A stretch of 32,000 nucleotides of DNA, taken from positions 480,001-512,000 of the forward strand of contig JBAQRV010000001.1 of assembly GCA_049296095.1 (NCBI GenBank). Direction: 5' to 3'. Positions 2,158 through 16,398 of this stretch are shown here, one piece after another. A model generated the notes under the pieces. That model made no database searches. It was not told the DNA's origin and saw nothing but the letters and a program-made list of their open reading frames with translations. A program made the position numbers and the translations under genes. This stretch comes from Candidatus Saccharimonadota bacterium (GTDB lineage: Bacteria; Patescibacteriota; Saccharimonadia; Saccharimonadales; Saccharimonadaceae). Within the stretch, counting starts at the first letter, position 1; the number at the start of each line of letters is the position of its first letter.

Positions 2158-3892
2158 GAGGCATCTCCTTTATTAGTTCATTGAGTTGTTGTCTGATCTT
2201 CATAGCTGTTTCGCTGTCGCCACTCTCCTCGGCGGTTCGCAGCCGTGCGGTCAGGTCGTCTTTGTTGATTTTCTTGTGTTCGGTTATCAGTTGGCGGACG
2301 AGGCGGGCAGTTTCGAAGTAACGATCTTCATCACTCCACTCCCCGTACCGTGCATCGGCCTTTAATAGTAATATTTTAACATAGGTGTCGTAATCCTTCA
2401 AATCCCTCGGGGTATTCTGCCAGAGTTCTGTGCTTTGGAGTAGCTGAGCAAGCACTGCTCGACGTTCGTCGTTAGACAGCATTGTCGGCGAGAGGTCTTT
2501 GAGGAGTTCTCGCACTGCAGGATCGATAACCGCAACCGCCAAAACATTATCCTGATACCCTGACGGGTCAGGACGCACTTCTTCAATTGGATGTACGACT
2601 TTTTTGAGTACTTTCTGGGTTGGCTCTTCAGTCCCCGCCAGCTTTTCCTTTAGGGTTTCGAGGGATGAATCAGTATAGGTCGCAATTTTTTGCAGATAAT
2701 GCTCTTGTTCGACCGCATCATTCAACACGCGGACCACTCTCAGGGCAGCGGTCGTAAAGTTTCGCTTGCCGATAGCTGTCGTCAGATCTTCGCGCAATGA
2801 ATATTGTTTCAAGACCCAATCGATCACTACCTCAGCCTCATCGATCGCCTTCTGCCACAGTGCTGGATCTTGTTGGATAAGTTCATCAGGATCTTTCACG
2901 TTATCAGGCAAACTAATAATCGTCAGGTCAACACCTACTGCTTGGGCAATTGGGATGGCACGTTCGGTCGCCGCTAGTCCTGCCGCATCTCCATCAAAGG
3001 CTAACTTAGCGTTCGGGCTTAGCCGTACCAAGGCCTTAAGGTGCGATTCGGTCATTGCTGTACCAGCCGTCGCCACTACCTGGGTAATACCCGCTTGGTG
3101 ACTACTGACGACGTCAAGATTACCCTCAACAATCACCGCATAATCATTCGCGCGGATGGCCTCTTTTGCTTGGCTGAGTCCAAAGACATGCCGACCTTTG
3201 TTGTAAAGAAGTGTTTCGGGAGTATTGAGATACTTTGGAGCATTTGGCTCGTCAGTGAGAATGCGACCAGTAAAGCCAATCACCTGTCCCGAACCGTCCA
3301 TCAAAGGCACGGTCATACGTCCACGGAAAAGATCACCGCCATAACGGTTTGTCAGGCCAGCAGCATCAGCCTCTTTGCGCGTAAAACCTTTCTTTGCCAA
3401 AAATTGCACCAAGGCATCCCCTGTGTCCGGAGCGTAGCCGATCCGAAACTGCTGCACAATATCCTTACTCAGGCCACGTTTTTTAAAAACGTATTCGAGT
3501 GCATGCTGATTCTTGACGAGACTCTGTTGGAAATAGTTGGTGGCCAGTTCGAGAATTTCTAATAATCGCTTTTTACGCTTCGCGATCTCTTGTGCACCTT
3601 TTGAATCATAGATCGAGAGATCAACTCCGACCCGCCGCGCGAGTAGCTCTAAGGCACCTCGAAAATCGACACCCTCCACTTCCATCACAAAACTAAAGAC
3701 ATCGCCACCTTTATTCGAAGAAAAATCGTGCCAGATATTTTTGTCTGGACTCACATAAAAACTCGGTGTCTTTTCACCACTAAATGGGCTGAGACCCTTG
3801 AAGTTTCGCCCAGCTCGCTTGAGCTGTACGTACTCCCCAATGACGTCCTCAATATTCAGACGTGCTCGGACTTCTTCCTTAGCGTCTTGCAT
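2144..3892 (-). CDS. dnaG: DNA primase
   Basis: N-terminal primase zinc-ribbon homology region [42 protein letters not shown] region [11 protein letters not shown] ... FDGDAAG. Sits directly upstream of rpoD, as in the classical dnaG-rpoD arrangement. Confidence 0.93.
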
Positions 3893-7171: not shown

Positions 7172-8857
7172 TTACATGCTACTCGGAACTTCAATACCGA
7201 GCAGGTCAAGCCCAGCCGTAAAGACTTGGCTTACTTTCGCAAGCACACCGAGTCGAGCTGACTTTTGCTCGTCACTTACGTCACCAGTCGCAATAGGCGT
7301 CGTTTCGTAGTAGCGGTTAAGGTCACGAGCAAGCTCATAGAGATAAGCTGCGACGCGGTGTGGTTCGAGATCGCGCGCACTCAGTGCAACGACCCCGGGA
7401 TATTCAAGCAGTTTGGCTATAATTGCCTTTTCTGCCTCGTAATCATAGCCCTCGATATCTGGGGCGCCGAGGCCATATTCATTCAAGATCTTATTTACCC
7501 GAACAGCCGCGTACTGAACATATGGACCACTAAATCCGCTGAGAGCAAAGATATTCTTCCAGTCAAATAAGATATTTGTACGACGGTCGGAAACAAAATC
7601 ACTAAACTTGATCGCACCAAGAGCAATCTTCTTGATATCTTCCTCACTGACAGCACGCTCAGCCACGACTTCACGCGCCTTTGCTTCTGCTTGATCGAGT
7701 AGTTCCTCCATCAGGACAACGCCTTTTCGGCTACTCATCTTTTCACGCGTACCGTCTTCACTGACTTGATCAATTGTTCCGAACCAAAGATGGGAGAGAT
7801 CGGTTGTAATACCAAGTTTTTTTGCCATAGCAAACAGCTGCGCAAAATAAAATTGTTGTTCAGCACCAACGGCGTAGATGACTTTGTCAGGATGCCATTC
7901 ATGCTCTCGGTATAAAATTGTTGCGAGATCGCTGGTCGCATACAAAGCAGCACCATTACTCTTTTGTACTAACAAAGGAACGTCATAGCCATAGTCATCC
8001 AAAGGAACAATAATCGAGCCATCTTCGTTCTGAATCGCGACACCAGTCTCGAGTAATTTCTGTACGGCCTCTTTTCCACGCGGCGCAAAAAAGGCTTCAC
8101 CCAGCTCATACTCCGTCGAAATCTTGAGACGGCGCATGACATTGTGAATATGTTCAAGCGAGATCTTGTTAAAACGATCGCTATAGGCCTTGGCTTGCTC
8201 ATCACCTGACTCAAACTTCAAGAGCCAGTCCTGCACTTCATCGGCCAACGTCGATTCACCACGCTCTTTTTCTTCTTTGAGCGCCTTCTTCATTTCAATG
8301 TAGACGCGGCCTAGCTCGTAGACACCATCTTTTTCCAAAGCTTCCTCGCTGCTGAACTTCAAAAAACCAGTAATCCAGATGCCAAGAGGCGCACCGTAAT
8401 CACCGAGATGATTGTCAGTAATCACCTTCCAGCCGGTCGCTTCCATTAGTTGTTTGGCAGCCCAGCCCTGATTGCCAGGACGAAGGTGACCAACACTGTA
8501 CGGCTTTGCCATGTTCGGACTCGGATACTCGACGACGACTGTTTTGCCAGCACCATCTTGATTTCGTCCGTAAGTCTCGCTCCAGTTCTGATTCAAGAGG
8601 TCGGCCAGCGAGCGAGCTTTGACACGCAGGTTGATAAACCCAGGGCCAGCGATAGTTACTTCACTAAAATCACTCGATTCGCGTAACTTCCCTGCTACCG
8701 CTTCCGCTACTTCGCGCGGATTCTTACCAAGAGGCTTCGCGATCTGTAATGCCACATTGGTTGCATAGTCGCCAAAGTCTGGCTCGGGACGAGTCAGTTT
8801 TACTTCTGCTTCTACCTCGAACAGTTCGCGGACAATCTGAGAAATTTTTTGTTCCAT
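7172..8857 (-). CDS. argS: arginine--tRNA ligase
   Basis: Full-length ArgRS-like sequence. It has an N-terminal additional domain, a class I catalytic core (PSPNMAKPYSVGHLR) and a C-terminal anticodon-binding domain ending in ..SSM. ATG 8857 is preferred over TTG 8863 because TGTTATAAT lies 8 nt upstream. Confidence 0.95.
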   Translation of the reverse strand: MEQKISQIVRELFEVEAEVKLTRPEPDFGDYATNVALQIAKPLGKNPREVAEAVAGKLRESSDFSEVTIAGPGFINLRVKARSLADLLNQNWSETYGRNQDGAGKTVVVEYPSPNMAKPYSVGHLRPGNQGWAAKQLMEATGWKVITDNHLGDYGAPLGIWITGFLKFSSEEALEKDGVYELGRVYIEMKKALKEEKERGESTLADEVQDWLLKFESGDEQAKAYSDRFNKISLEHIHNVMRRLKISTEYELGEAFFAPRGKEAVQKLLETGVAIQNEDGSIIVPLDDYGYDVPLLVQKSNGAALYATSDLATILYREHEWHPDKVIYAVGAEQQFYFAQLFAMAKKLGITTDLSHLWFGTIDQVSEDGTREKMSSRKGVVLMEELLDQAEAKAREVVAERAVSEEDIKKIALGAIKFSDFVSDRRTNILFDWKNIFALSGFSGPYVQYAAVRVNKILNEYGLGAPDIEGYDYEAEKAIIAKLLEYPGVVALSARDLEPHRVAAYLYELARDLNRYYETTPIATGDVSDEQKSARLGVLAKVSQVFTAGLDLLGIEVPSSM

Positions 8858-8878: not shown

Positions 8879-10459
8879 TTAGTTTTTCGCCGCTTTGATC
8901 AGGCCAACAAACAATGGATGCGCCCGAAAAGGTCGACTCTTGAACTCTGGGTGAGCTTGAGTCGCCACAAAATAAGGATTATCGCTAGCTTCAATATATT
9001 CCACTAGTTTTCCATCAGGAGACAGCCCGCTAATCATCAAGCCACCCTTTGTAATATCATCGAGAAAGGCTTGATTTACCTCATAGCGGTGGCGGTGGCG
9101 TTCCACGATTTCCGTCTCACCATAAGCCTCGGCAACCTTCGATCCTGGTGTGAGTTTTGCAGTGTAATCACCAAGTCGCAATGTTCCACCCGTCGACTCC
9201 TTGCCCTGTTGACCATCCATAATGTAGACAACATTGTTTTTTGTATCAGGGTCAAATTCAGTACTATTTGCATCCGCTAGTCCAGCCCGACGAGCAGCTG
9301 CAATAACTGCAATCTGCAAACCTAAACAAAGGCCAAGGTACGGTTTTTTGTTTTCAAGTGCGTAGTCAGCCGCACAGATCTTGCCTTCGATTCCACGCTT
9401 ACCGAAGCCTCCTGGAACAAGGATTCCATCCATTTCAGCCAGCTGTGCAGTATCGCAATCCTCGGCGTTGATCCAGACAACTTCCAACCCAACCTCTTCT
9501 TGCCAGGCAGCCGCCTTCAAGGCTTCTAAAACAGAAATATAGGTATCTTCGTTATCGAGATACTTCGCAACCATGCCAATCTTCACCGTCTTGTCATAGG
9601 ATACTTCCTGGGCGGTAGCCAGTTTGCGCCATTTTGAAAGATCAGCCTTGGTCTTGTTGCCCGTAAAACGTTCTAGTACAGCATTAATGCCACTCGCATC
9701 GATCGTCAGAGGTACCTCATACACCGTTTTAGCATTTGAAAGTAAAATCACGGCATCCTTGCTGACGCCGCTAAATTGCGCAATCTTATCAGCAATCGCT
9801 ACTGGCGCTGGTTCATCGGTACGAACCACGACGCAGTCTGGCACAATACCAAACCCACGTAGGTCGTTCAAGGCATTTTGAGCGGGTTTCGATTTAAATT
9901 CTTTACTCGTATGAATAAATGGCACGTATACCACGTGGACATACATACAGTTCTCGCGTCCAACACGTGAAGCAAATTCACGAATTGCCTCAACATAGCT
10001 CAAGCCTTCATAGTCCCCAACCGTTCCACCGATTTCAACGATATGAACATCTGAACCGTTAGCCGCTAATTGGATCGCATCCTGAATTGCACTAGTCAGA
10101 TGCGGGACAAGCTGAATCGTTTGCCCATTAAACTTTCCGGCACGCTCATCAGCAATCAGCTGACTTAATAATTTCCCCGATAGTGTCGCGTTCTTCTGTG
10201 TTAATTCCAAATCCAAAAAACGCTCGTAGTGACCAAGGTCAAGATCCGTTTCTGCACCATCTTTAGTGACAAAACATTCACCATGTTCTTTTGGATTTAA
10301 AAGTCCCGCATCTACATTAAGATACGGGTCACATTTTTGAATTGAAACCTTTACACCCTTTGCCTGCAAAATCGCACCAATGCTTGCCGCAGTGATGCCT
10401 TTGCCTACCCCTGAAAGCACGCCCCCAGTTACAAAGATATATTTTTGTTTTTGCCCCAT
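8879..10459 (-). CDS. pyrG: CTP synthase
   Basis: N-terminal KYIFVTGGVLSGVGKG. C-terminal glutamine amidotransferase motifs GLCLGLQ and HPEF. ATG 10459 (MGQKQKYIFVTGG) is chosen because a TGCTACAAT -10 lies at 10489-10497 and GGAGG would fall in the leader. Confidence 0.95.
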   Translation of the reverse strand: MGQKQKYIFVTGGVLSGVGKGITAASIGAILQAKGVKVSIQKCDPYLNVDAGLLNPKEHGECFVTKDGAETDLDLGHYERFLDLELTQKNATLSGKLLSQLIADERAGKFNGQTIQLVPHLTSAIQDAIQLAANGSDVHIVEIGGTVGDYEGLSYVEAIREFASRVGRENCMYVHVVYVPFIHTSKEFKSKPAQNALNDLRGFGIVPDCVVVRTDEPAPVAIADKIAQFSGVSKDAVILLSNAKTVYEVPLTIDASGINAVLERFTGNKTKADLSKWRKLATAQEVSYDKTVKIGMVAKYLDNEDTYISVLEALKAAAWQEEVGLEVVWINAEDCDTAQLAEMDGILVPGGFGKRGIEGKICAADYALENKKPYLGLCLGLQIAVIAAARRAGLADANSTEFDPDTKNNVVYIMDGQQGKESTGGTLRLGDYTAKLTPGSKVAEAYGETEIVERHRHRYEVNQAFLDDITKGGLMISGLSPDGKLVEYIEASDNPYFVATQAHPEFKSRPFRAHPLFVGLIKAAKN

Positions 10460-10488
10460 GTTAGTTTTTTGCACCTCCATGGAGCCTC

Positions 10489-10497
10489 ATTGTAGCA
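10489..10497 (-). promoter_or_regulatory. extended -10 element (TGCTACAAT) for pyrG
   Basis: The minus strand reads TGCTACAAT about 30 nt upstream of ATG 10459, with GGAGG in the resulting short leader. Confidence 0.4.
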
Positions 10498-10565
10498 GGC
10501 TATAATATAAAAGCGCTAGCCCTGGGACGTTGTAGTATTGTCACTACGCTAGATGTAGCGGTGGA

Positions 10566-11741
10566 CTAGATAAGTTCGTCGAGCGATGAACCTGGAGTAT
10601 AAAGATGAAGTGGCTGATTATCCATCTCCCACGCCTGCTGAACAGGTGCCACAATTTCCCAAGATCGCAGAACCTCGGGGCCGGTCGTAAAGATCATCTT
10701 ACGACCCTCAATTGCCTCAATCAGTACGTGCTCATAGGCATCAGGAATATGTTCCTTGTGCAGCATCTTACCCTCTTCAAAAACATCCTCCGTCCCATCG
10801 TGATGGGTGAGCTTAATATAGGTTCGCTTCACATCGAGAGCTTTGCCTGTCGAGAGCCGTAGTGACACACCTTGCCAGTGCTCATCATTGCTTACCAGTT
10901 GCAAACTGGCGAATGTTTCCGTTAGACTACCCATATTTCCTACCTCAGTCTGATAGCCCTCGTACTGCGCCCTCACGGCCTTAACTGGATCTGCTGGTTC
11001 AATCGCCTCCAAGGCCTGTAAACGATACTGAGACAGCTTCTCGAGCGTGAAATCTTGAGGAATCTCCATTATCACCAACGATAATAGCTGCATGAGGTGC
11101 CCTTGGATAAAGTCGCGAAGCGCGCCAGTCTGCTCATAAAAAACCGCCCGATCCTCAACGCCGATCATTTCGCTGGCAACAACATCGATGGCCGCAACTG
11201 AATGCTTATTCCAGCTATGGTGGTGCGTCTCGATGTCCGAACGACGCCTAATAATTTCTTGGGCAATTTCCTTTGCCATGTAGTGATCGATTCGATAAAT
11301 CTGCGACTCATTAAAGTAGCGCCCCGTTCGAGCGATAAAATCCTGAGCCGAGGCAAGATCATAGCCAAATGGTTTTTCGAACAAAATCTTTACATTACGT
11401 GAACTGACCCCGGCTTGCCCGAGGAAGTCGACGATATCAGCGGCCGCGTTGGGTGGGACGGACAGATAAAAGAGGGCCTGTTCATCTTTTCCAAGTCGTA
11501 GATAGTCGGAGAGCTTGTCATAGTCACCTTTTTCAGCGAGATCCATGGTAAAGATTTCCGTTCGATCTATCAGGTTAGGCTGGTCTTCTAATAGTTCCTT
11601 GACATCGACTTCACGACGAGACACACCAACAACCGAAAGATCGTCGTAGTTACCCGACGCAACTATGTCACTTAAGACCGGCAGGAGTTTGCGCCGACTG
11701 AGGTCGCCAGTGATACCGAAGATAATGAGTTTTGTCTTCAT
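10566..11741 (-). CDS. zwf: glucose-6-phosphate dehydrogenase (short form, 391 aa)
   Basis: NADP-binding IIFGITGDLSRRKLLP, the EKPFG motif, and the RIDHYMAKE variant of the active-site nonapeptide. Confidence 0.85.
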   Translation of the reverse strand: MKTKLIIFGITGDLSRRKLLPVLSDIVASGNYDDLSVVGVSRREVDVKELLEDQPNLIDRTEIFTMDLAEKGDYDKLSDYLRLGKDEQALFYLSVPPNAAADIVDFLGQAGVSSRNVKILFEKPFGYDLASAQDFIARTGRYFNESQIYRIDHYMAKEIAQEIIRRRSDIETHHHSWNKHSVAAIDVVASEMIGVEDRAVFYEQTGALRDFIQGHLMQLLSLVIMEIPQDFTLEKLSQYRLQALEAIEPADPVKAVRAQYEGYQTEVGNMGSLTETFASLQLVSNDEHWQGVSLRLSTGKALDVKRTYIKLTHHDGTEDVFEEGKMLHKEHIPDAYEHVLIEAIEGRKMIFTTGPEVLRSWEIVAPVQQAWEMDNQPLHLYTPGSSLDELI

Positions 11742-11750
11742 ACTACTATT

Positions 11751-12362
11751 CTATCGCTCTTCATCATCATGCGGTTTAAAAATGTCAGGCAGTGGAGCAC
11801 CGAATTTTGCTTCTGGAAGGTCAATCAATCCGCGAGGATTACGCGCATTGGGATATTGGATCTGGAAAGCTTCTGTAACCGAACCGAATACTGCATCATC
11901 CCACGAGAATCCTAGCTTTGTAGCCATATCTTTTACTAGCTCTTCACTATGAGCTTCGATTTCAATATAGGGACTAAGCCAGGGCCACTCATCAAGAACG
12001 ACTTCAACACCGTCACCAACCCGCCAGGTCTCACGTTTTGACTCCTGAAGAGACTGGTGTTTCAAACCACCCTCTTCAAGGATGGCAAGCGTTGTTTCAA
12101 AATCACTCACAACAACTTCATGCTCAGATGCGCCCGTTAAAGAATTTTCTTTAAACTCTTTAAATGTCAAAGTCACCTTGTCGCCCTCATCTCGAAGACG
12201 CATAAACGAGTGTCTTCCATTCTTTATCATCGCGTCAGTTTGAATAAGCGCACGTCGCATTAACCGCATTGGTTGCTCACACACCCCACTCAACTCCTCC
12301 AACCTGGCACGTACATCATTGAAGTCAACATCTAAAAATTTAACTTCAATTTCCATCTTCAT
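11751..12362 (-). CDS. CYTH domain protein (class IV adenylate cyclase / triphosphatase family)
   Basis: N-terminal EIEVKF (ExExK signature). About 200 aa. Alternating acidic and basic beta-strand pattern. Confidence 0.75.
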   Translation of the reverse strand: MKMEIEVKFLDVDFNDVRARLEELSGVCEQPMRLMRRALIQTDAMIKNGRHSFMRLRDEGDKVTLTFKEFKENSLTGASEHEVVVSDFETTLAILEEGGLKHQSLQESKRETWRVGDGVEVVLDEWPWLSPYIEIEAHSEELVKDMATKLGFSWDDAVFGSVTEAFQIQYPNARNPRGLIDLPEAKFGAPLPDIFKPHDDEER

Positions 12363-12389: not shown

Positions 12390-13382
12390 TTATTCAGATT
12401 TTGACGTCCCAGCATTCACTTCATAACTAGTGTTCGTCGTTTCAAAGAAGTTCACCAACTGCAACGTGTCGTTAGCCGCAGCCATCCACTTCGCAGGGTT
12501 TGATACCTTATAGTGAGGCTCAAATCCGAGTTCTTCCAGACGACGATCGGCCAAGTACTTCACGTACTGGTTGATGTAATCGCTGTTCAGACCGAGAATA
12601 CCATTTGGCAATAAGTCCTTGTTGTAGGCTTCTTCCATTTCAACACCATCAAGGATCATTTGCTTGATCTCGGCCGCAAACTCCTCAGTTTGTAGGTCTT
12701 CGTTCTCTTCAAGTACCGTTAGAATCAAGTTGATACCAAACTTAAGGTGAAGTGATTCATCACGGACTACCCAGTCGATCAGGCTAGCAAAGTTACGAAG
12801 TAGGTTTCGTTGTCGGAAAGACAACGCTACCATAAAGCCGCTATAGAACCAGATGCCTTCAAGAATAATGTTGTAGGCGATCAGGTTCCGAATGAAGTCC
12901 TTCTTACCATCGGTCGTTGTGATGTCGAGAGTTTCTTCGGTCATACGCTTGATAAACTTGGTTTCAAACTCCTCTTTACGCGCCATCGAAGGGGTTTCAA
13001 CGTGAGCTGCATAGGCAACATCGCGATCAATTGGGAAGGTTTCGAGGACATATTCAAAACTCATACAGTGATTGGCTTCTTCCCACATTTGCTTCGCAAG
13101 ATACAGGTGGCACTCGGCTGCATTGACGTAAGGGTACACACCAAAAGCCAGCGCTTTATTCACCAATAGTTCGTTCGGGTTGAAGTAACTCATGAGGAAG
13201 GTCACCGCATGACGCTCTTCTTCACTCATTTCCTTCCAGTCGGCCAAATCCTGACCTAGTTGGATTTCGTTGGGAAACCACGTATTTGCCACAGCTTGGT
13301 TATAGAGGTCCATTGCCCACTTGTATTTTACGGGTTTGAGCAGTAGCCCGTCTTGGATTCCGGTTCCTAAAATTCCTGGCAT
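12390..13382 (-). CDS. nrdB: ribonucleotide reductase small subunit, class Ic-like (R2c)
   Basis: Ferritin-like metal motifs NELLV, EEANHCMSF, ILEGIWFYSGF and VRDESLH. C-terminal NFFETTNTSYEV tail. SD AGGAGA 6 nt upstream of the ATG. Confidence 0.93.
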   Translation of the reverse strand: MPGILGTGIQDGLLLKPVKYKWAMDLYNQAVANTWFPNEIQLGQDLADWKEMSEEERHAVTFLMSYFNPNELLVNKALAFGVYPYVNAAECHLYLAKQMWEEANHCMSFEYVLETFPIDRDVAYAAHVETPSMARKEEFETKFIKRMTEETLDITTTDGKKDFIRNLIAYNIILEGIWFYSGFMVALSFRQRNLLRNFASLIDWVVRDESLHLKFGINLILTVLEENEDLQTEEFAAEIKQMILDGVEMEEAYNKDLLPNGILGLNSDYINQYVKYLADRRLEELGFEPHYKVSNPAKWMAAANDTLQLVNFFETTNTSYEVNAGTSKSE

Positions 13383-13400: not shown

Positions 13401-13577
13401 TTATTGGCAACTATCGCACATGGTGAGATCAGCTGGATCAAGTGGTGCAGCCATGCTGAGGCCGTTAGCAGCAGCATCTTCTTGAGCTTGTTGTTGTGCA
13501 TTGGCCATTGCGGCATCAATTGCAGCGAGCTTCTCGTCGAGTGTCATAGTGTCGTTAATGATTGTTGTTGCGTTCAT
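13401..13577 (-). CDS. small protein (58 aa) ending in CDSCQ, encoded between nrdA and nrdB
   Basis: Not in the ORF track because it is under 60 aa. My minus-strand translation is MNATTIINDTMTLDEKLAAIDAAMANAQQQAQEDAAANGLSMAAPLDPADLTMCDSCQ. AAGGGGA lies 9 nt upstream of ATG 13577. The stop lies 18 nt before the nrdB ATG. Confidence 0.55.
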   Translation of the reverse strand: MNATTIINDTMTLDEKLAAIDAAMANAQQQAQEDAAANGLSMAAPLDPADLTMCDSCQ

Positions 13578-13642
13578 TGTCTTTTATCCCCTTATTCTGA
13601 TGCTTTATTGATCGTGTTTATGTTTCGTTCAGTTAATGCTTA

Positions 13643-16048
13643 TCATACGCCGACCTCTTGCTTTTTAGCAAATCCAAATCCTGTTTTTCGAGCTGATCCA
13701 TCTGAACTTTCGGCTTTGTTTACCTTGACGGTACTTTGTTCGGCAGTGTGTCGTGGTTTAACGTGTAGGTAGTAAGTCGTCTTTAGGCCTCGTTGCCATG
13801 CAGCTGAGTAAATCTTTACCATTTCGTCGATGTCGCGAGTTTCGAGGTACATGTTACGGCTGATTGCTTGATCGACCCACTTCTGTGCCCGAGCCGCTAC
13901 TTCGATAAAGCTGTATGGACTGAGCTGGAAGCTGGTCTTGTAAATGTCTTTGAGACGTTGCGGGATCGCTTCGATCTGTTGAACATCGCCCTGAGTGCGA
14001 AGAATTTCCTCTTTTACCTCATCCCACAAGCCTAGCTCTTTCAGGTCGTGAACAAGGTTTTTGTTCACTTCGAGGAACTTGCCGTTCAAGGTTGCACGAG
14101 AGAAAATCTGTGCGAACTGCGGGTCGAGTCCAGGTGTCGTGCCGGCAATGTGAGCGATATTTGCTGTCGGTGCAATTGCCATAAGAGTCGCGTTACGCAT
14201 TCCCTTTTTAACCTTCGCGCGGAGCTTATCCCAGTCGAGGCGAGTCTTGCGGTTCACTTCAACTTTTACCTTACGATCAGCGGCCAGTAGGTCAACAGTA
14301 TCAATAGGAAGGATTCCCTTGCTCCAGCCGCTTCCCTTGAAAGTTGGGTATGAGCCAAACTTCTTGGCGAGATCTGCTGATTCGTCGATCGCGTGATAGC
14401 TAATGAACTCAGCTAGTTGATCAACCAGGTCATAGGCCTCTTCAGATTCGTAGCTAAAACCAAGCTTCTCACTGACGTCGGTGAAGCCCATGAAGCCGAG
14501 GCCGAGGGCGCGGTTCTGCGTGTTCGAGCGCATCGCTTCTGGAACTGGCGTATTAGTGATATCAACCAGGTTATCGAGCTGGCGAATCGCACTTCGGGAA
14601 CTCGCAGCCAACGCATCCCAGTCCCAAGTCTTGTCTTCGCGTAGGTGAGCTGACAAGTTAATACTGACTAGGTTACACACGGCAGTATTGTTCTCGTCCT
14701 GCGGCAAGGTGATTTCAGTACAAAGGTTACTGAGGTGGATTGTCGAGGTGTTATTGTTGAGCGCTCGAACGTTAATGGTATCCTTCCAGGTCAGCCATGG
14801 GTGGCTCGTTGCCTGCAGAGTGATGAGGATCTGGCGATACTGTTGTAATGCCTTGATCTTTTTGAAGTTACGCATTTGTCCTGCCTCAGCCTTTTTGATA
14901 TACCCATTGTAGGCAGCCGAGAATTCAGCACCATAGAGTTCGTTCAAGTCAGCTACTTCGGCTGGGTCAAACAGATACCAGTCCTGATCCTTAGCAACGC
15001 GCTTCATGAATTCGTCGCTAATAAAGACGGCGGTGTTCATGATACGTGCACGCATGTATGGGTCACCCGAGTTCTGCTTGAGGTCGAGGAATTCTGGGAA
15101 ATCGATGTGCCAGTTTTCCATGTACATGGCAGCGGCGCCCATCTTTTTACCCTTACGACTGACGGCGAAGAGTGCTGAGTCGATCATCTTCATGAATGGA
15201 ATCGGACCCGTAGAAGTGGTGTTAGTGGTTTTGACTGGGCTCCCAGAGGCACGAAGCTTGTTCATGCTGATACCGATACCACCAGTCCCCTTCGCAATCC
15301 ACATCACATCGCGGATACCCTTAGCGATTGATTCCATGTCGTCTTGGACTTCTAAAAGGAAACAGTTCGATAGTTGCGGGAATGCTCCACCGGCGTTTAC
15401 TCGAGTTGAGCCACCAGGAACATATTCTAGCTTGCTCATGTGCTCGTAGAAATCGAGTGCGCTTTCAGTTGGGTCCTCGGCATTAAAGCTGAGCCCCATG
15501 GCAATACGCATGTGCGTGTATTGAGGTACTTCGATCGCAATGCCACCGTTACGACGCAGTGCGTAGCGGTTATTGTTGGTTAGCACACCGAGATAGTGGC
15601 TGAGCTGGTCGCGAGATGGGTCGATTGCCTTAGCAAGCTTTTTGAGATCGAATAGCTTGCTATTCATGCGCTTGTCGAGCAAACCTTCAGCAACGCCTTC
15701 TTTGAGGTATTCGAGGAATTTATCTTCGTGGAGCTTTTTGAGCTCAGCCGGTGTCTTGTATTCGCCCAAGATACCCTTATATGTATTCTTCAAAAGAAGC
15801 CGAGTCGCAATGACGTCGAAGTCTGGATCGTCTTTGACGTTCTGCAAAGCAACCTGGATCACTGCTTCATCGAGCTGTGTAGTCGTAATGCCGTCAAATA
15901 ATGTCAATGAAAGTTCTGATGCAACTTGAACTACCTTGCTGATTTGGTCTGGAAGGCCCTCACTTGCCTCGACCAATGCCAGGTTGATCATATTCGCGTC
16001 AAATGGTTCGCGTGTGCCGTCGCGTTTTACCACTGTGATTGCGCTCAT
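13643..16048 (-). CDS. nrdA: ribonucleotide reductase large subunit, class I
   Basis: N-terminal ATP-cone (VVKRDGTREPFD). Catalytic cysteine motifs LSNCFLLEV, LSNLCTEI and AVCNLVSINL. SD AGGGGA upstream. The C-terminal approximately 40 residues contain no Cys. Confidence 0.95.
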   Translation of the reverse strand: MSAITVVKRDGTREPFDANMINLALVEASEGLPDQISKVVQVASELSLTLFDGITTTQLDEAVIQVALQNVKDDPDFDVIATRLLLKNTYKGILGEYKTPAELKKLHEDKFLEYLKEGVAEGLLDKRMNSKLFDLKKLAKAIDPSRDQLSHYLGVLTNNNRYALRRNGGIAIEVPQYTHMRIAMGLSFNAEDPTESALDFYEHMSKLEYVPGGSTRVNAGGAFPQLSNCFLLEVQDDMESIAKGIRDVMWIAKGTGGIGISMNKLRASGSPVKTTNTTSTGPIPFMKMIDSALFAVSRKGKKMGAAAMYMENWHIDFPEFLDLKQNSGDPYMRARIMNTAVFISDEFMKRVAKDQDWYLFDPAEVADLNELYGAEFSAAYNGYIKKAEAGQMRNFKKIKALQQYRQILITLQATSHPWLTWKDTINVRALNNNTSTIHLSNLCTEITLPQDENNTAVCNLVSINLSAHLREDKTWDWDALAASSRSAIRQLDNLVDITNTPVPEAMRSNTQNRALGLGFMGFTDVSEKLGFSYESEEAYDLVDQLAEFISYHAIDESADLAKKFGSYPTFKGSGWSKGILPIDTVDLLAADRKVKVEVNRKTRLDWDKLRAKVKKGMRNATLMAIAPTANIAHIAGTTPGLDPQFAQIFSRATLNGKFLEVNKNLVHDLKELGLWDEVKEEILRTQGDVQQIEAIPQRLKDIYKTSFQLSPYSFIEVAARAQKWVDQAISRNMYLETRDIDEMVKIYSAAWQRGLKTTYYLHVKPRHTAEQSTVKVNKAESSDGSARKTGFGFAKKQEVGV

Positions 16049-16196
16049 GTAATTCCCCTATGCTACGTTCTTATATTAGTAATTGAGTCTGTCATACACT
16101 TTAACCTCCCCGGAAACCCCTATTTTAGGGGCGCAAGAATAACATCGGTGTAGCAGCCGTCTGTTAGTCTTGCTAAATGTGTATTTTGATGTCAGT

Positions 16197-16345
16197 ACTA
16201 CATATGTAGTGCTTATGTAAGACTATATGCCCCCACATATGGTTTTTCAAGCGTTTTTATGTGTTTTTTTCACCACATGAGCGCTTATGCTTATTTAACA
16301 CCTTATAGTGTGGTGTTTGTTATTTACAACGCTATATGTGGTGTG
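16197..16345. promoter_or_regulatory. cluster of ATATGTGG-type operator repeats upstream of nrdA (candidate NrdR-box-like sites)
   Basis: Plus-strand copies: ACTACATATGTAGT (16197-16210, a perfect 14-bp palindrome), CCACATATGG (16233-16242), CACCACATGA (16271-16280), TTATAGTGTGGTG (16303-16315) and CTATATGTGGTGTG (16332-16345). Both orientations occur. Confidence 0.45.
16222..16250 (-). promoter_or_regulatory. sigma-70-type promoter for the nrd operon (TTGAAA-17-TATAGT)
   Basis: The minus strand reads TTGAAA-AACCATATGTGGGGGCA-TATAGT. One operator copy lies in the spacer and the 14-bp palindrome lies just downstream of the predicted start. This implies a leader of about 165 nt. Confidence 0.45.
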
Positions 16346-16398
16346 TTGAGTACTTAGCCGTTTTCTCTATTCGACAAATTAATTTCGAGCGAGCACTC

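Follow-up and report, generated by a model that had tools for sequence, protein, structure and literature searches.

The window analysed here is a 32,000-nucleotide stretch of a Candidatus Saccharimonadota bacterium (GCA_049296095.1, contig JBAQRV010000001.1, positions 480,001 to 512,000), and the element of interest is a small gene lying between the two subunit genes of a class I ribonucleotide reductase (RNR). All three genes are encoded on the reverse strand, as are the features mapped within them below: nrdA (13643–16048) encodes the 801-residue large subunit, the small open reading frame (ORF; 13401–13577) encodes a 58-residue protein proposed here to be a trans-acting RNR redox tail, and nrdB (12390–13382) encodes the 330-residue, class Ic-like radical-generating subunit. 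The large subunit ends in ...KVNKAESSDGSARKTGFGFAKKQEVGV, followed by a double stop (TGA TAA). A 65-nt spacer (13578–13642) then leads to the small ORF, which is read in a different frame from nrdA and has its own Shine-Dalgarno sequence, AAGGGGA (13587–13593), 9 nt 5' of the ATG. The start of nrdB lies 18 nt 3' of the small-ORF stop and is preceded by AGGAG; a sequence scan found no terminator-like site between nrdA, the small ORF and nrdB. The initial annotation of this locus had already pointed to a 58-residue ORF ending in CDSCQ, with a CxxC one residue from its end, a Shine-Dalgarno sequence at 9 nt and an out-of-frame gap of 65 nt, and all of these details hold at the coordinates given above.

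The NrdA C-terminus and the small protein

NrdA comprises the ATP-cone, all-alpha and ten-stranded barrel domains (PF03477, PF00317, PF02867), scores 1360.6 bits against the NCBIfam equivalog NF005101 (PRK06539; cutoff 988) and has P. aeruginosa NrdA (5IM3) as its best PDB match. It contains exactly three cysteines, C229 (SNCFL), C443 (NLCTEI) and C458 (AVCNL), which constitute the catalytic triad only, in line with the initial observation that the catalytic cysteines are present while a C-terminal pair is lacking. The triad, together with N441 and E445 of the NLCTEI motif and the Tyr-Tyr radical-transfer dyad Y759/Y760, is invariant in 34 homologues and aligns with 5IM3. A flexible C-terminal tail carrying a redox Cys pair on the same polypeptide is a general feature of class I RNRs (PMC9669993). 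In this NrdA no cysteine follows C458, and the place of the usual CxxC tail is taken by a Cys-free stretch of 45 residues (13646–13780) that contains a GFGF motif (residues 790–793; 13670–13681). The last 40 residues are Cys-free, and GFGF is present, in 120 of the 120 closest NrdA homologues. Likewise, every complete NrdA (79 loci) among 80 species-representative Saccharibacteria loci has a Cys-free stretch of 45 residues at its end together with the invariant GFGF.

The GFGF motif might be a docking or linker element, and R[RK]GFG repeats in the actinobacterial and fused relatives described below correspond to it; an AlphaFold2 model of NrdA alone, built with 34 close homologues, was too poor (mean pLDDT 44.8) for judging this end of the chain. 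The NF005101 profile extends 27 positions beyond the matched region at its C-terminus; a reading of these positions as a Cys tail was dropped, as the actinobacterial relatives end in Cys-free GFG sequence. One large subunit (L068, 887 aa) runs on into an unrelated Ser/Asn-rich tail, probably through an assembly frameshift or a lost stop, and the small ORF still follows it.

The small protein, MNATTIINDTMTLDEKLAAIDAAMANAQQQAQEDAAANGLSMAAPLDPADLTMCDSCQ, has C54 and C57 as its sole cysteines (CxxC, 13407–13418), with C57 one residue from the MCDSCQ end. It carries two conserved blocks: an N-terminal amphipathic helix of invariant and near-invariant columns (residues 11–28, MTLDEKLAAIDAAMANAQ; 13494–13547), which is a candidate docking module, and the C-terminal motif APLDPADLTMCDSCQ (13404–13445), which matches the tails of unsplit NrdAz-type enzymes and of fused relatives. 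Pfam and NCBIfam assign the small ORF to no family. AlphaFold2 with the family alignment predicts one helix (residues 13–37, pLDDT 65–72) and disorder in the remainder, which fits the expectation for a tethered flexible arm. Thioredoxin-fold redoxins (thioredoxin, glutaredoxin and NrdH) have about 75–110 residues and place CxxC at the N-terminus of helix 1; the small protein matches neither PF00085 nor PF00462, has a single predicted helix and places its CxxC at the C-terminus. HMA-type metallochaperones adopt a beta-alpha-beta-beta-alpha-beta fold of about 70 residues with MxCxxC in the first loop; here there is no Pfam match, no strand is predicted and the motif again sits at the C-terminal end.

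A word-indexed search recovered 601 clusters of the small protein at 90% identity, the best 120 of which are all 57–61 aa long; public gene calls include the ORF, named only 'hypothetical protein'. An exhaustive profile search of 1.84 billion representatives yielded 127 at 50% identity, nearly all of them stand-alone proteins of 40–90 aa. Their common architecture consists of a helix block, (D/E)xM(T/S)L(D/E)EKLAAIDxAM, a linker that varies in both length and composition, and an invariant P-[VIL]-D-P-x-x-L-x-x-C-x-x-C-[QE] at the very C-terminus. CxxC plus one residue closes 99 of the 124 short representatives (Q in 76, E in 20), and most of the others look like products of frameshifted or truncated assemblies. 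In an alignment of 71 loci (the window and 70 species loci, with four divergent loci left out), the proportion of synonymous differences (pS) is 0.70–0.77, a saturated level; the proportion of nonsynonymous differences (pN) is 0.38 for the linker and 0.15 for the helix and tail blocks, where pS is about 0.77. This pattern marks the small ORF as a real gene under purifying selection and, with the 601 clusters, contradicts the possibility, raised at the outset as one that would count against a function, that it is not conserved.

Genomic linkage and tail motifs in Saccharibacteria and Actinobacteria

Genomic neighborhood analysis ties the small ORF to nrdAB. The 80 species-representative Saccharibacteria loci were searched in six frames with a hidden Markov model (HMM) of the small protein; 76 are assessable, the contigs of L041, L056, L059 and L080 ending short of the expected position. 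The ORF is found in the nrdAB cluster of 75 of the 76, 74 of them by the search itself and one, L061, by the first 20 codons that precede its contig end. Two gene orders occur: nrdA, small ORF, nrdB, as in the window, and nrdA, nrdB, a PNPOx-like gene, small ORF, in a clade to which the cultured TM7i genome belongs. A simpler pattern search directly after nrdA had left one clade seemingly without the ORF; the six-frame search overturned this by finding it after nrdB. The spacers between nrdA and the small ORF range from 3 to 175 nt, which together with the two gene orders excludes a sequencing or frameshift artefact.

At repeated instances the PNPOx-like gene, which encodes an FMN-binding split-barrel protein of about 135 aa, adjoins nrdB, lies directly 5' of the small ORF, or both. 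It is found in TM7i-type Saccharibacteria, in L089 and in Protaetiibacter (L072, 7649–8056; L089, 116–523; L041, from about 4650 to the contig end; L095, 8652–9056), and may take part in the cofactor or redox chemistry of RNR.

NrdB has C. trachomatis R2c (1SYY, 8.6e-70) as its best PDB match and belongs to NCBIfam NF007186. It carries Phe at the tyrosyl-radical position (EEANHCMSF, vs EEAVHTHTF in 1SYY) and Glu in place of the first Asp metal ligand (NPNELLV, vs STAESLV), from which the enzyme is assigned as class Ic-like. Redoxin genes flank the cluster in two divergent members. In L092, trxB and trxA are divergent from an nrdA-small ORF-nrdB-Nramp cluster (trxB, trxA and Nramp lie within 2241–3469 and 7173–8417), and in L179 a glutaredoxin-like gene (CGFC, 2490–2756) lies just 5' of nrdA-small ORF-nrdB.

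The end of the small protein was compared with the covalent (cis) tails of unsplit NrdAz-type relatives, which belong to the same broad clade and are about 40% identical to the window NrdA. These unsplit proteins end in ...PQACSIDNPDCEACQ (P. aeruginosa), ...ACSINDPDCEACQ (Phyllobacterium), ...MCSILDPNCEACQ (Legionella), ...VEDPTCEACQ (Halorussus) and ...FDDCEACQ (Acaryochloris), with further ends ...ACSIDNPDCEACQ (Pseudomonas) and ...CSINDPDCEACQ, and their tails match the Pseudomonas-type and Chlamydia-type family profiles to the last position. Their motif at the extreme C-terminus, [IV]-D-(x)-P ... C-[ED]-x-C-Q, is also that of the window small protein (PLDPADLTMCDSCQ). Small proteins typically end in ...PLDPADLTMC(D/E)(S/G)CQ; divergent members end in ACPIDPAERAxCE[AG]CQ or FTCPMDPAERALCDSCQ, examples being ...ACPIDPAERAQCEGCQ (L092), ...FACPIDPAERALCEACQ (P0328) and ...FTCPMDPAERALCDSCQ (L180), and keep the third cysteine of the Pseudomonas-type tail. 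Common to small proteins and cis tails are thus the Asp-Pro, the CxxC one residue from the end and the terminal Gln, a resemblance we take as homology, or at least as strict functional equivalence. On motif and phylogenetic context, the C-terminal third of the small protein most likely derives from an ancestral NrdA tail.

Relatives outside Saccharibacteria were gathered with the NrdA of L092, which is 69% identical to that of the window. The nearest belong to Microbacteriaceae (Leifsonia, Cryobacterium, Protaetiibacter, Homoserinimonas, Naasia, Pontimonas) and have about 815–835 aa. About 105 actinobacterial NrdA relatives lack tail cysteines, and their ends are Ala/Pro-rich with R[RK]GFG repeats; on the sequences compared, the whole NF005101 (PRK06539) family is tail-less.

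The complete Protaetiibacter sp. SSC-01 genome (CP059987.1) has an nrdA that ends in ...RRGFGGLA-TGA, and an unannotated micro-ORF of 26 codons, MSGYTAVDEYAVPVDPMDELQCESCQ (L095, 7463–7543), lies in the 131-nt gap before nrdB. Its ATG is formed by the A of the last nrdA codon and the TG of the stop, an ATGA overlap. A sample of 80 related Microbacteriaceae-like metagenome loci (L099–L178) shows the same arrangement: in all 74 that extend far enough to be assessed, an unannotated micro-ORF of 21–54 codons follows nrdA, its start overlapping or abutting the nrdA stop (ATGA/GTGA or TGATG) or lying a few nt away. Such varied junction frames suggest reinitiation or independent initiation rather than programmed frameshifting. 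The micro-ORFs end in [Y]xVP[VI]DPMD[DE]LQC[ED]SCQ (VPVDPMDDLQCESCQ); over 65 distinct nucleotide versions of this tail pS is 0.59 and pN 0.12, and P, D, P, M, C, C and Q are invariant. The initial annotation had proposed comparing loss of the tail Cys pair with presence of the small ORF among orthologues, and the two do co-occur (75/76 Saccharibacteria and 74/74 Microbacteriaceae-like assessable loci). The split tail is, as far as these sequences tell, not peculiar to this genome but a property of the whole NF005101 family, cultured Actinobacteria included.

Three natural fusions of 986–1010 aa (P0406, P0468 and P0469; L097, 4001–7033), with nrdB as the next gene, join the two elements in one chain. 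In each, a linker of about 190 residues, in which GFG and Ala/Pro abound, connects the NrdA body to an end ...GGVACPVDPMERLQCESCQ, with ...ACPVDPMERLQCESCQ as the same tail motif as in the split small proteins. The fusions were found only from the NrdA side: with so short a motif in common, the exhaustive profile search with the small-protein HMM returned none at E <= 1e-3. A rough neighbour-joining tree places the fused forms as the sister group of the split actinobacterial ones and Saccharibacteria in a second subclade of short, split forms. On this tree, fission, or fission followed by re-fusion, would have occurred more than once.

Saccharibacteria live as episymbionts on Actinobacteria. 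Their NrdA proteins are 64–74% identical to those of Microbacteriaceae and a few other lineages, and about 40% identical to other NrdAz proteins. This identity, taken with the episymbiont lifestyle, hints that the nrdA-tail-nrdB set moved horizontally between Actinobacteria and their Saccharibacteria episymbionts.

Proposed mechanism, precedents and alternatives

With NrdA unable to supply the redox pair in cis, and the operon's only Cys pair in the right motif located on the small protein, we propose that the 58-residue protein is a separately made polypeptide that constitutes the C-terminal redox tail of the class I (Ic-like) RNR large subunit (probability roughly three in four). The suggestion of an RNR tail expressed in trans was already part of the initial annotation, and it gains support from the motif match, the co-occurrence with tail-less NrdA, the natural fusions and the flanking redoxin genes. 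Its companion claim, that the ORF is not a simple read-through or fusion remnant, stands in part: the spacers of 3–175 nt, the two gene orders and the purifying selection leave no room for read-through or a recent frameshift, but the C-terminal third, most probably a descendant of the ancestral tail, would in that sense be a remnant.

In class I RNRs, turnover oxidises an active-site Cys pair, which the C-terminal pair re-reduces before being reduced in turn by thioredoxin or glutaredoxin (PMC9669993; PMC4520616). In the window enzyme, turnover would leave C229 and C458 as a disulfide. The flexible end of the small protein, …PLDPADLTMC54DSC57Q, would then enter the active site and reduce this disulfide by thiol-disulfide exchange, doing the same job as the covalent CxxC tail of other class I enzymes. 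Once oxidised, the peptide would leave, and thioredoxin or a glutaredoxin-like redoxin would reduce it again. Docking on NrdA is probably the task of the N-terminal amphipathic helix, possibly close to the GFGF end, and the variable Ala/Gln-rich segment would serve as a leash on which the CxxCQ end shuttles between active site and redoxin. The helix-less actinobacterial peptide may instead be a redox mediator that exchanges freely. Inferred in this scheme are the route of the electrons, the docking by the helix and which reductant serves the enzyme in this genome.

The closest precedent for a tail in trans is NrdJa/NrdJb of Pseudomonas aeruginosa (Crona et al. 2015, PMC4520616), in which NrdJb supplies the C-terminal cysteines to NrdJa and carries out the reductive dithiol exchange, and both chains are needed for efficient turnover with physiological reductants; the authors describe the pair as a unique split RNR in a free-living organism. 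As in that system, a catalytic chain without a Cys tail is accompanied here by the product of an adjacent gene that ends in a Cys pair. However, NrdJa/NrdJb is a class II, B12-dependent enzyme, whereas the window chain is class I with an NrdB partner, and NrdJb is a large folded protein with IscU-like as well as zinc-finger domains, unlike the small protein, which has no detectable homology to it and only two cysteines. The NrdAz enzymes with cis tails (P. aeruginosa 5IM3, Chlamydia-type PRK12365, Halorussus, Legionella and Acaryochloris) belong to the same family, have NrdA about 40% identical to that of the window, share with it an R2c-like or related NrdB, and end in the motif seen here, (I/V)D(x)P...C-E/D-x-C-Q-COOH, which in some cases has a third cysteine upstream of it. 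In these enzymes the motif is attached to NrdA through a 20–40-residue linker, whereas in the window it sits on a separate polypeptide with its own start codon, and the Saccharibacteria protein has a new N-terminal helix.

Other known systems differ more fundamentally. In Aeromonas phage Aeh1 the class I large-subunit gene nrdA is in two pieces whose products reassemble (Crona et al. 2011, PMC3045599), but that split lies inside the catalytic body, is caused by a homing endonuclease and detaches no redox tail. NrdH and the glutaredoxin fused to NrdB in Facklamia ignava (PMC6187632) are dedicated RNR redoxins. They resemble the present case as small CxxC proteins of nrd operons, and feed electrons to RNR, but unlike the small protein, which would replace the tail, they have a thioredoxin fold and reduce tails still borne by NrdA/NrdE. 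The CX2C tail of yeast Rnr1, as Zhang and colleagues are said to have reported in PNAS in 2007, acts across the dimer on the active site of the other polypeptide; there, 'in trans' means between dimer protomers, since the tail is covalently part of the large subunit. A survey of RNR C-termini by Burnim et al. gives CXXC as the class I consensus, and its discussion of tail-less enzymes concerns class II. The literature searched, which did not cover subscription-only papers, yielded neither a class I tail in trans nor an account of this family of small proteins, and nothing relevant on the RNR of Saccharibacteria or Patescibacteria or under the tail motif strings.

Several observations count against a tail in trans. 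The shared motif spans only about 12–15 residues, and its homology rests on the motif itself, its extreme C-terminal position and the context, with no significant alignment score. When the last 27 residues of the small protein were appended to the NrdA C-terminus and scored against NCBIfam, the gain was small: NF005101 rose from 329.3 to 336.0 bits (+6.7), reaching position 821/822, with reversed and shuffled controls at 331.8 and 332.4 (+2.5 and +3.1). For NF005544 the score went from 170.2 to 173.2 bits and the alignment extended to 965/965, with controls at 171.9 and 171.6. The NF005101 score is not relied on, because the end of that profile models the Cys-free GFG tail. The small ORF is absent from one assessable Saccharibacteria locus, L043, where a 5.2-kb contig has a tRNA-Ser (2503–2595) between nrdA and nrdB instead; the ORF may lie elsewhere in that genome. 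The actinobacterial micro-ORF peptides lack the N-terminal helix, so that recognition must sit in the 16 conserved residues. Finally, the window contains no thioredoxin or glutaredoxin gene, and the reductant is therefore presumably encoded elsewhere in the genome.

The brevity of the motif also leaves room for convergence, and the small protein could be an independently evolved mini-reductant that came to resemble RNR tails and reduces NrdA or a redoxin without docking. The N-terminal two thirds, which have no counterpart in any NrdA tail, and the free 21–54-aa peptides of Actinobacteria would suit such an origin. Even so, the likeness goes beyond CxxC to the DP motif, the terminal Q, the exact position and an optional third cysteine at the same distance, and a single NrdA clade has fused as well as split forms; we regard this origin as improbable, and functionally it would differ little from a tail in trans. 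Slightly less probable still is a metal-handling peptide whose xMCxxC, which recalls the MxCxxC of metallochaperones, delivers or buffers metal for the Mn/Fe cofactor of the class Ic-like NrdB and has no part in NrdA reduction. The small gene does adjoin nrdB, and metal-related genes occur nearby in relatives (Nramp beside nrdB in L092, Zip and an Fe/Mn superoxide dismutase in L089), but class Ic enzymes evidently keep their cis tail, given that the Chlamydia-type and Pseudomonas-type profiles reach the CEACQ end, and a lone CxxC is, by established coordination chemistry, normally no ligand for Mn(II). Metal handling would moreover leave unexplained why the Cys tail is gone from exactly this NrdA family, why the motif is the same as that of unsplit NrdA tails and why the fusions join NrdA rather than NrdB; nor is there a match to HMA or any other Pfam family.

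A regulatory role is unlikely to a greater degree. A protein that, like yeast Sml1, binds the large subunit and competes with the tail could use the helix as its binding module, with a redoxin or small thiol re-reducing the enzyme directly, and direct small-molecule reduction has been raised by Burnim et al. for RNRs without C-terminal cysteines. What is invariant, however, is the CxxCQ end and not the helix, with which Actinobacteria dispense, and an inhibitor would have no need of an invariant cysteine pair placed exactly where a catalytic tail carries its own. Least credible of all, to the point of being nearly negligible, is an artefact or decaying remnant in which a frameshift or sequencing error split nrdA and left an unexpressed ORF. 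The other reading frame and the position close 3' of nrdA would look much the same in that case, but the ORF has its own Shine-Dalgarno sequence and ATG, is under strong purifying selection, is kept in hundreds of assemblies at spacers of 3–175 nt and even in another gene order, and has a conserved N-terminal extension found in no NrdA. The redox tail in trans is preferred because tail loss, motif identity and natural fusions occur in combination, and no alternative accounts for that combination as well.

A broader proposal, towards which we lean only slightly, is that Saccharibacteria, Microbacteriaceae and related lineages share a class I (Ic-like) RNR family in which the redox tail has become a separate, possibly freely exchanging micropeptide of 21–68 aa, which in Actinobacteria would be translated through coupling to the nrdA stop and is unannotated. 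The enzyme would then be encoded by three genes (alpha, beta and tail peptide), with fission or re-fusion on more than one occasion and possible movement of the gene set between Actinobacteria and Saccharibacteria; no account of any of this came up in the literature searched. The finding is broader than it first appeared because it would extend to a whole NrdA family across two phyla and to an unannotated actinobacterial micro-ORF. Every turnover of a class I RNR includes re-reduction of the active site by the tail, a step that is difficult to investigate since the tail lacks order and is bound covalently. If the proposal is true, a separate, synthesisable tail of 21–58 residues would permit direct titration, trapping and structural study of this step, a third essential gene would be added to class I RNR, and a systematic annotation gap would come to light in cultured Actinobacteria, where a conserved micro-ORF overlaps the stop of nrdA. 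For evolution, the family would offer a clean case of gene fission and fusion at a flexible linker and would connect the Saccharibacteria enzyme with that of the Actinobacteria that usually host them. RNR is an established drug target, and peptide-dependent reduction, if confirmed, could be a lineage-specific point of attack.

Promoter region and flanking genes

A promoter-like site, TTGAAA-17-TATAGT (16222–16250, reverse strand), lies 5' of nrdA. It was identified by consensus match only (10/12 positions) and is likely the operon promoter for nrdA, the small ORF and nrdB. The region 5' of nrdA (16190–16350) also contains AT-rich palindromes and repeats that resemble NrdR boxes, such as AGTACTACAT/ATGTAGTGCT at 16194–16213 and ACGCTATATGTGGTGT at 16329–16344; a search of this upstream region with the NrdR-box pattern gave one match with 3 mismatches, which is not above chance. 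On the 3' side of nrdB, the same strand encodes a CYTH-domain protein, glucose-6-phosphate dehydrogenase (a source of NADPH) and CTP synthase (8879–12362), and this order is kept in the 3 public contigs that carry the identical small protein.

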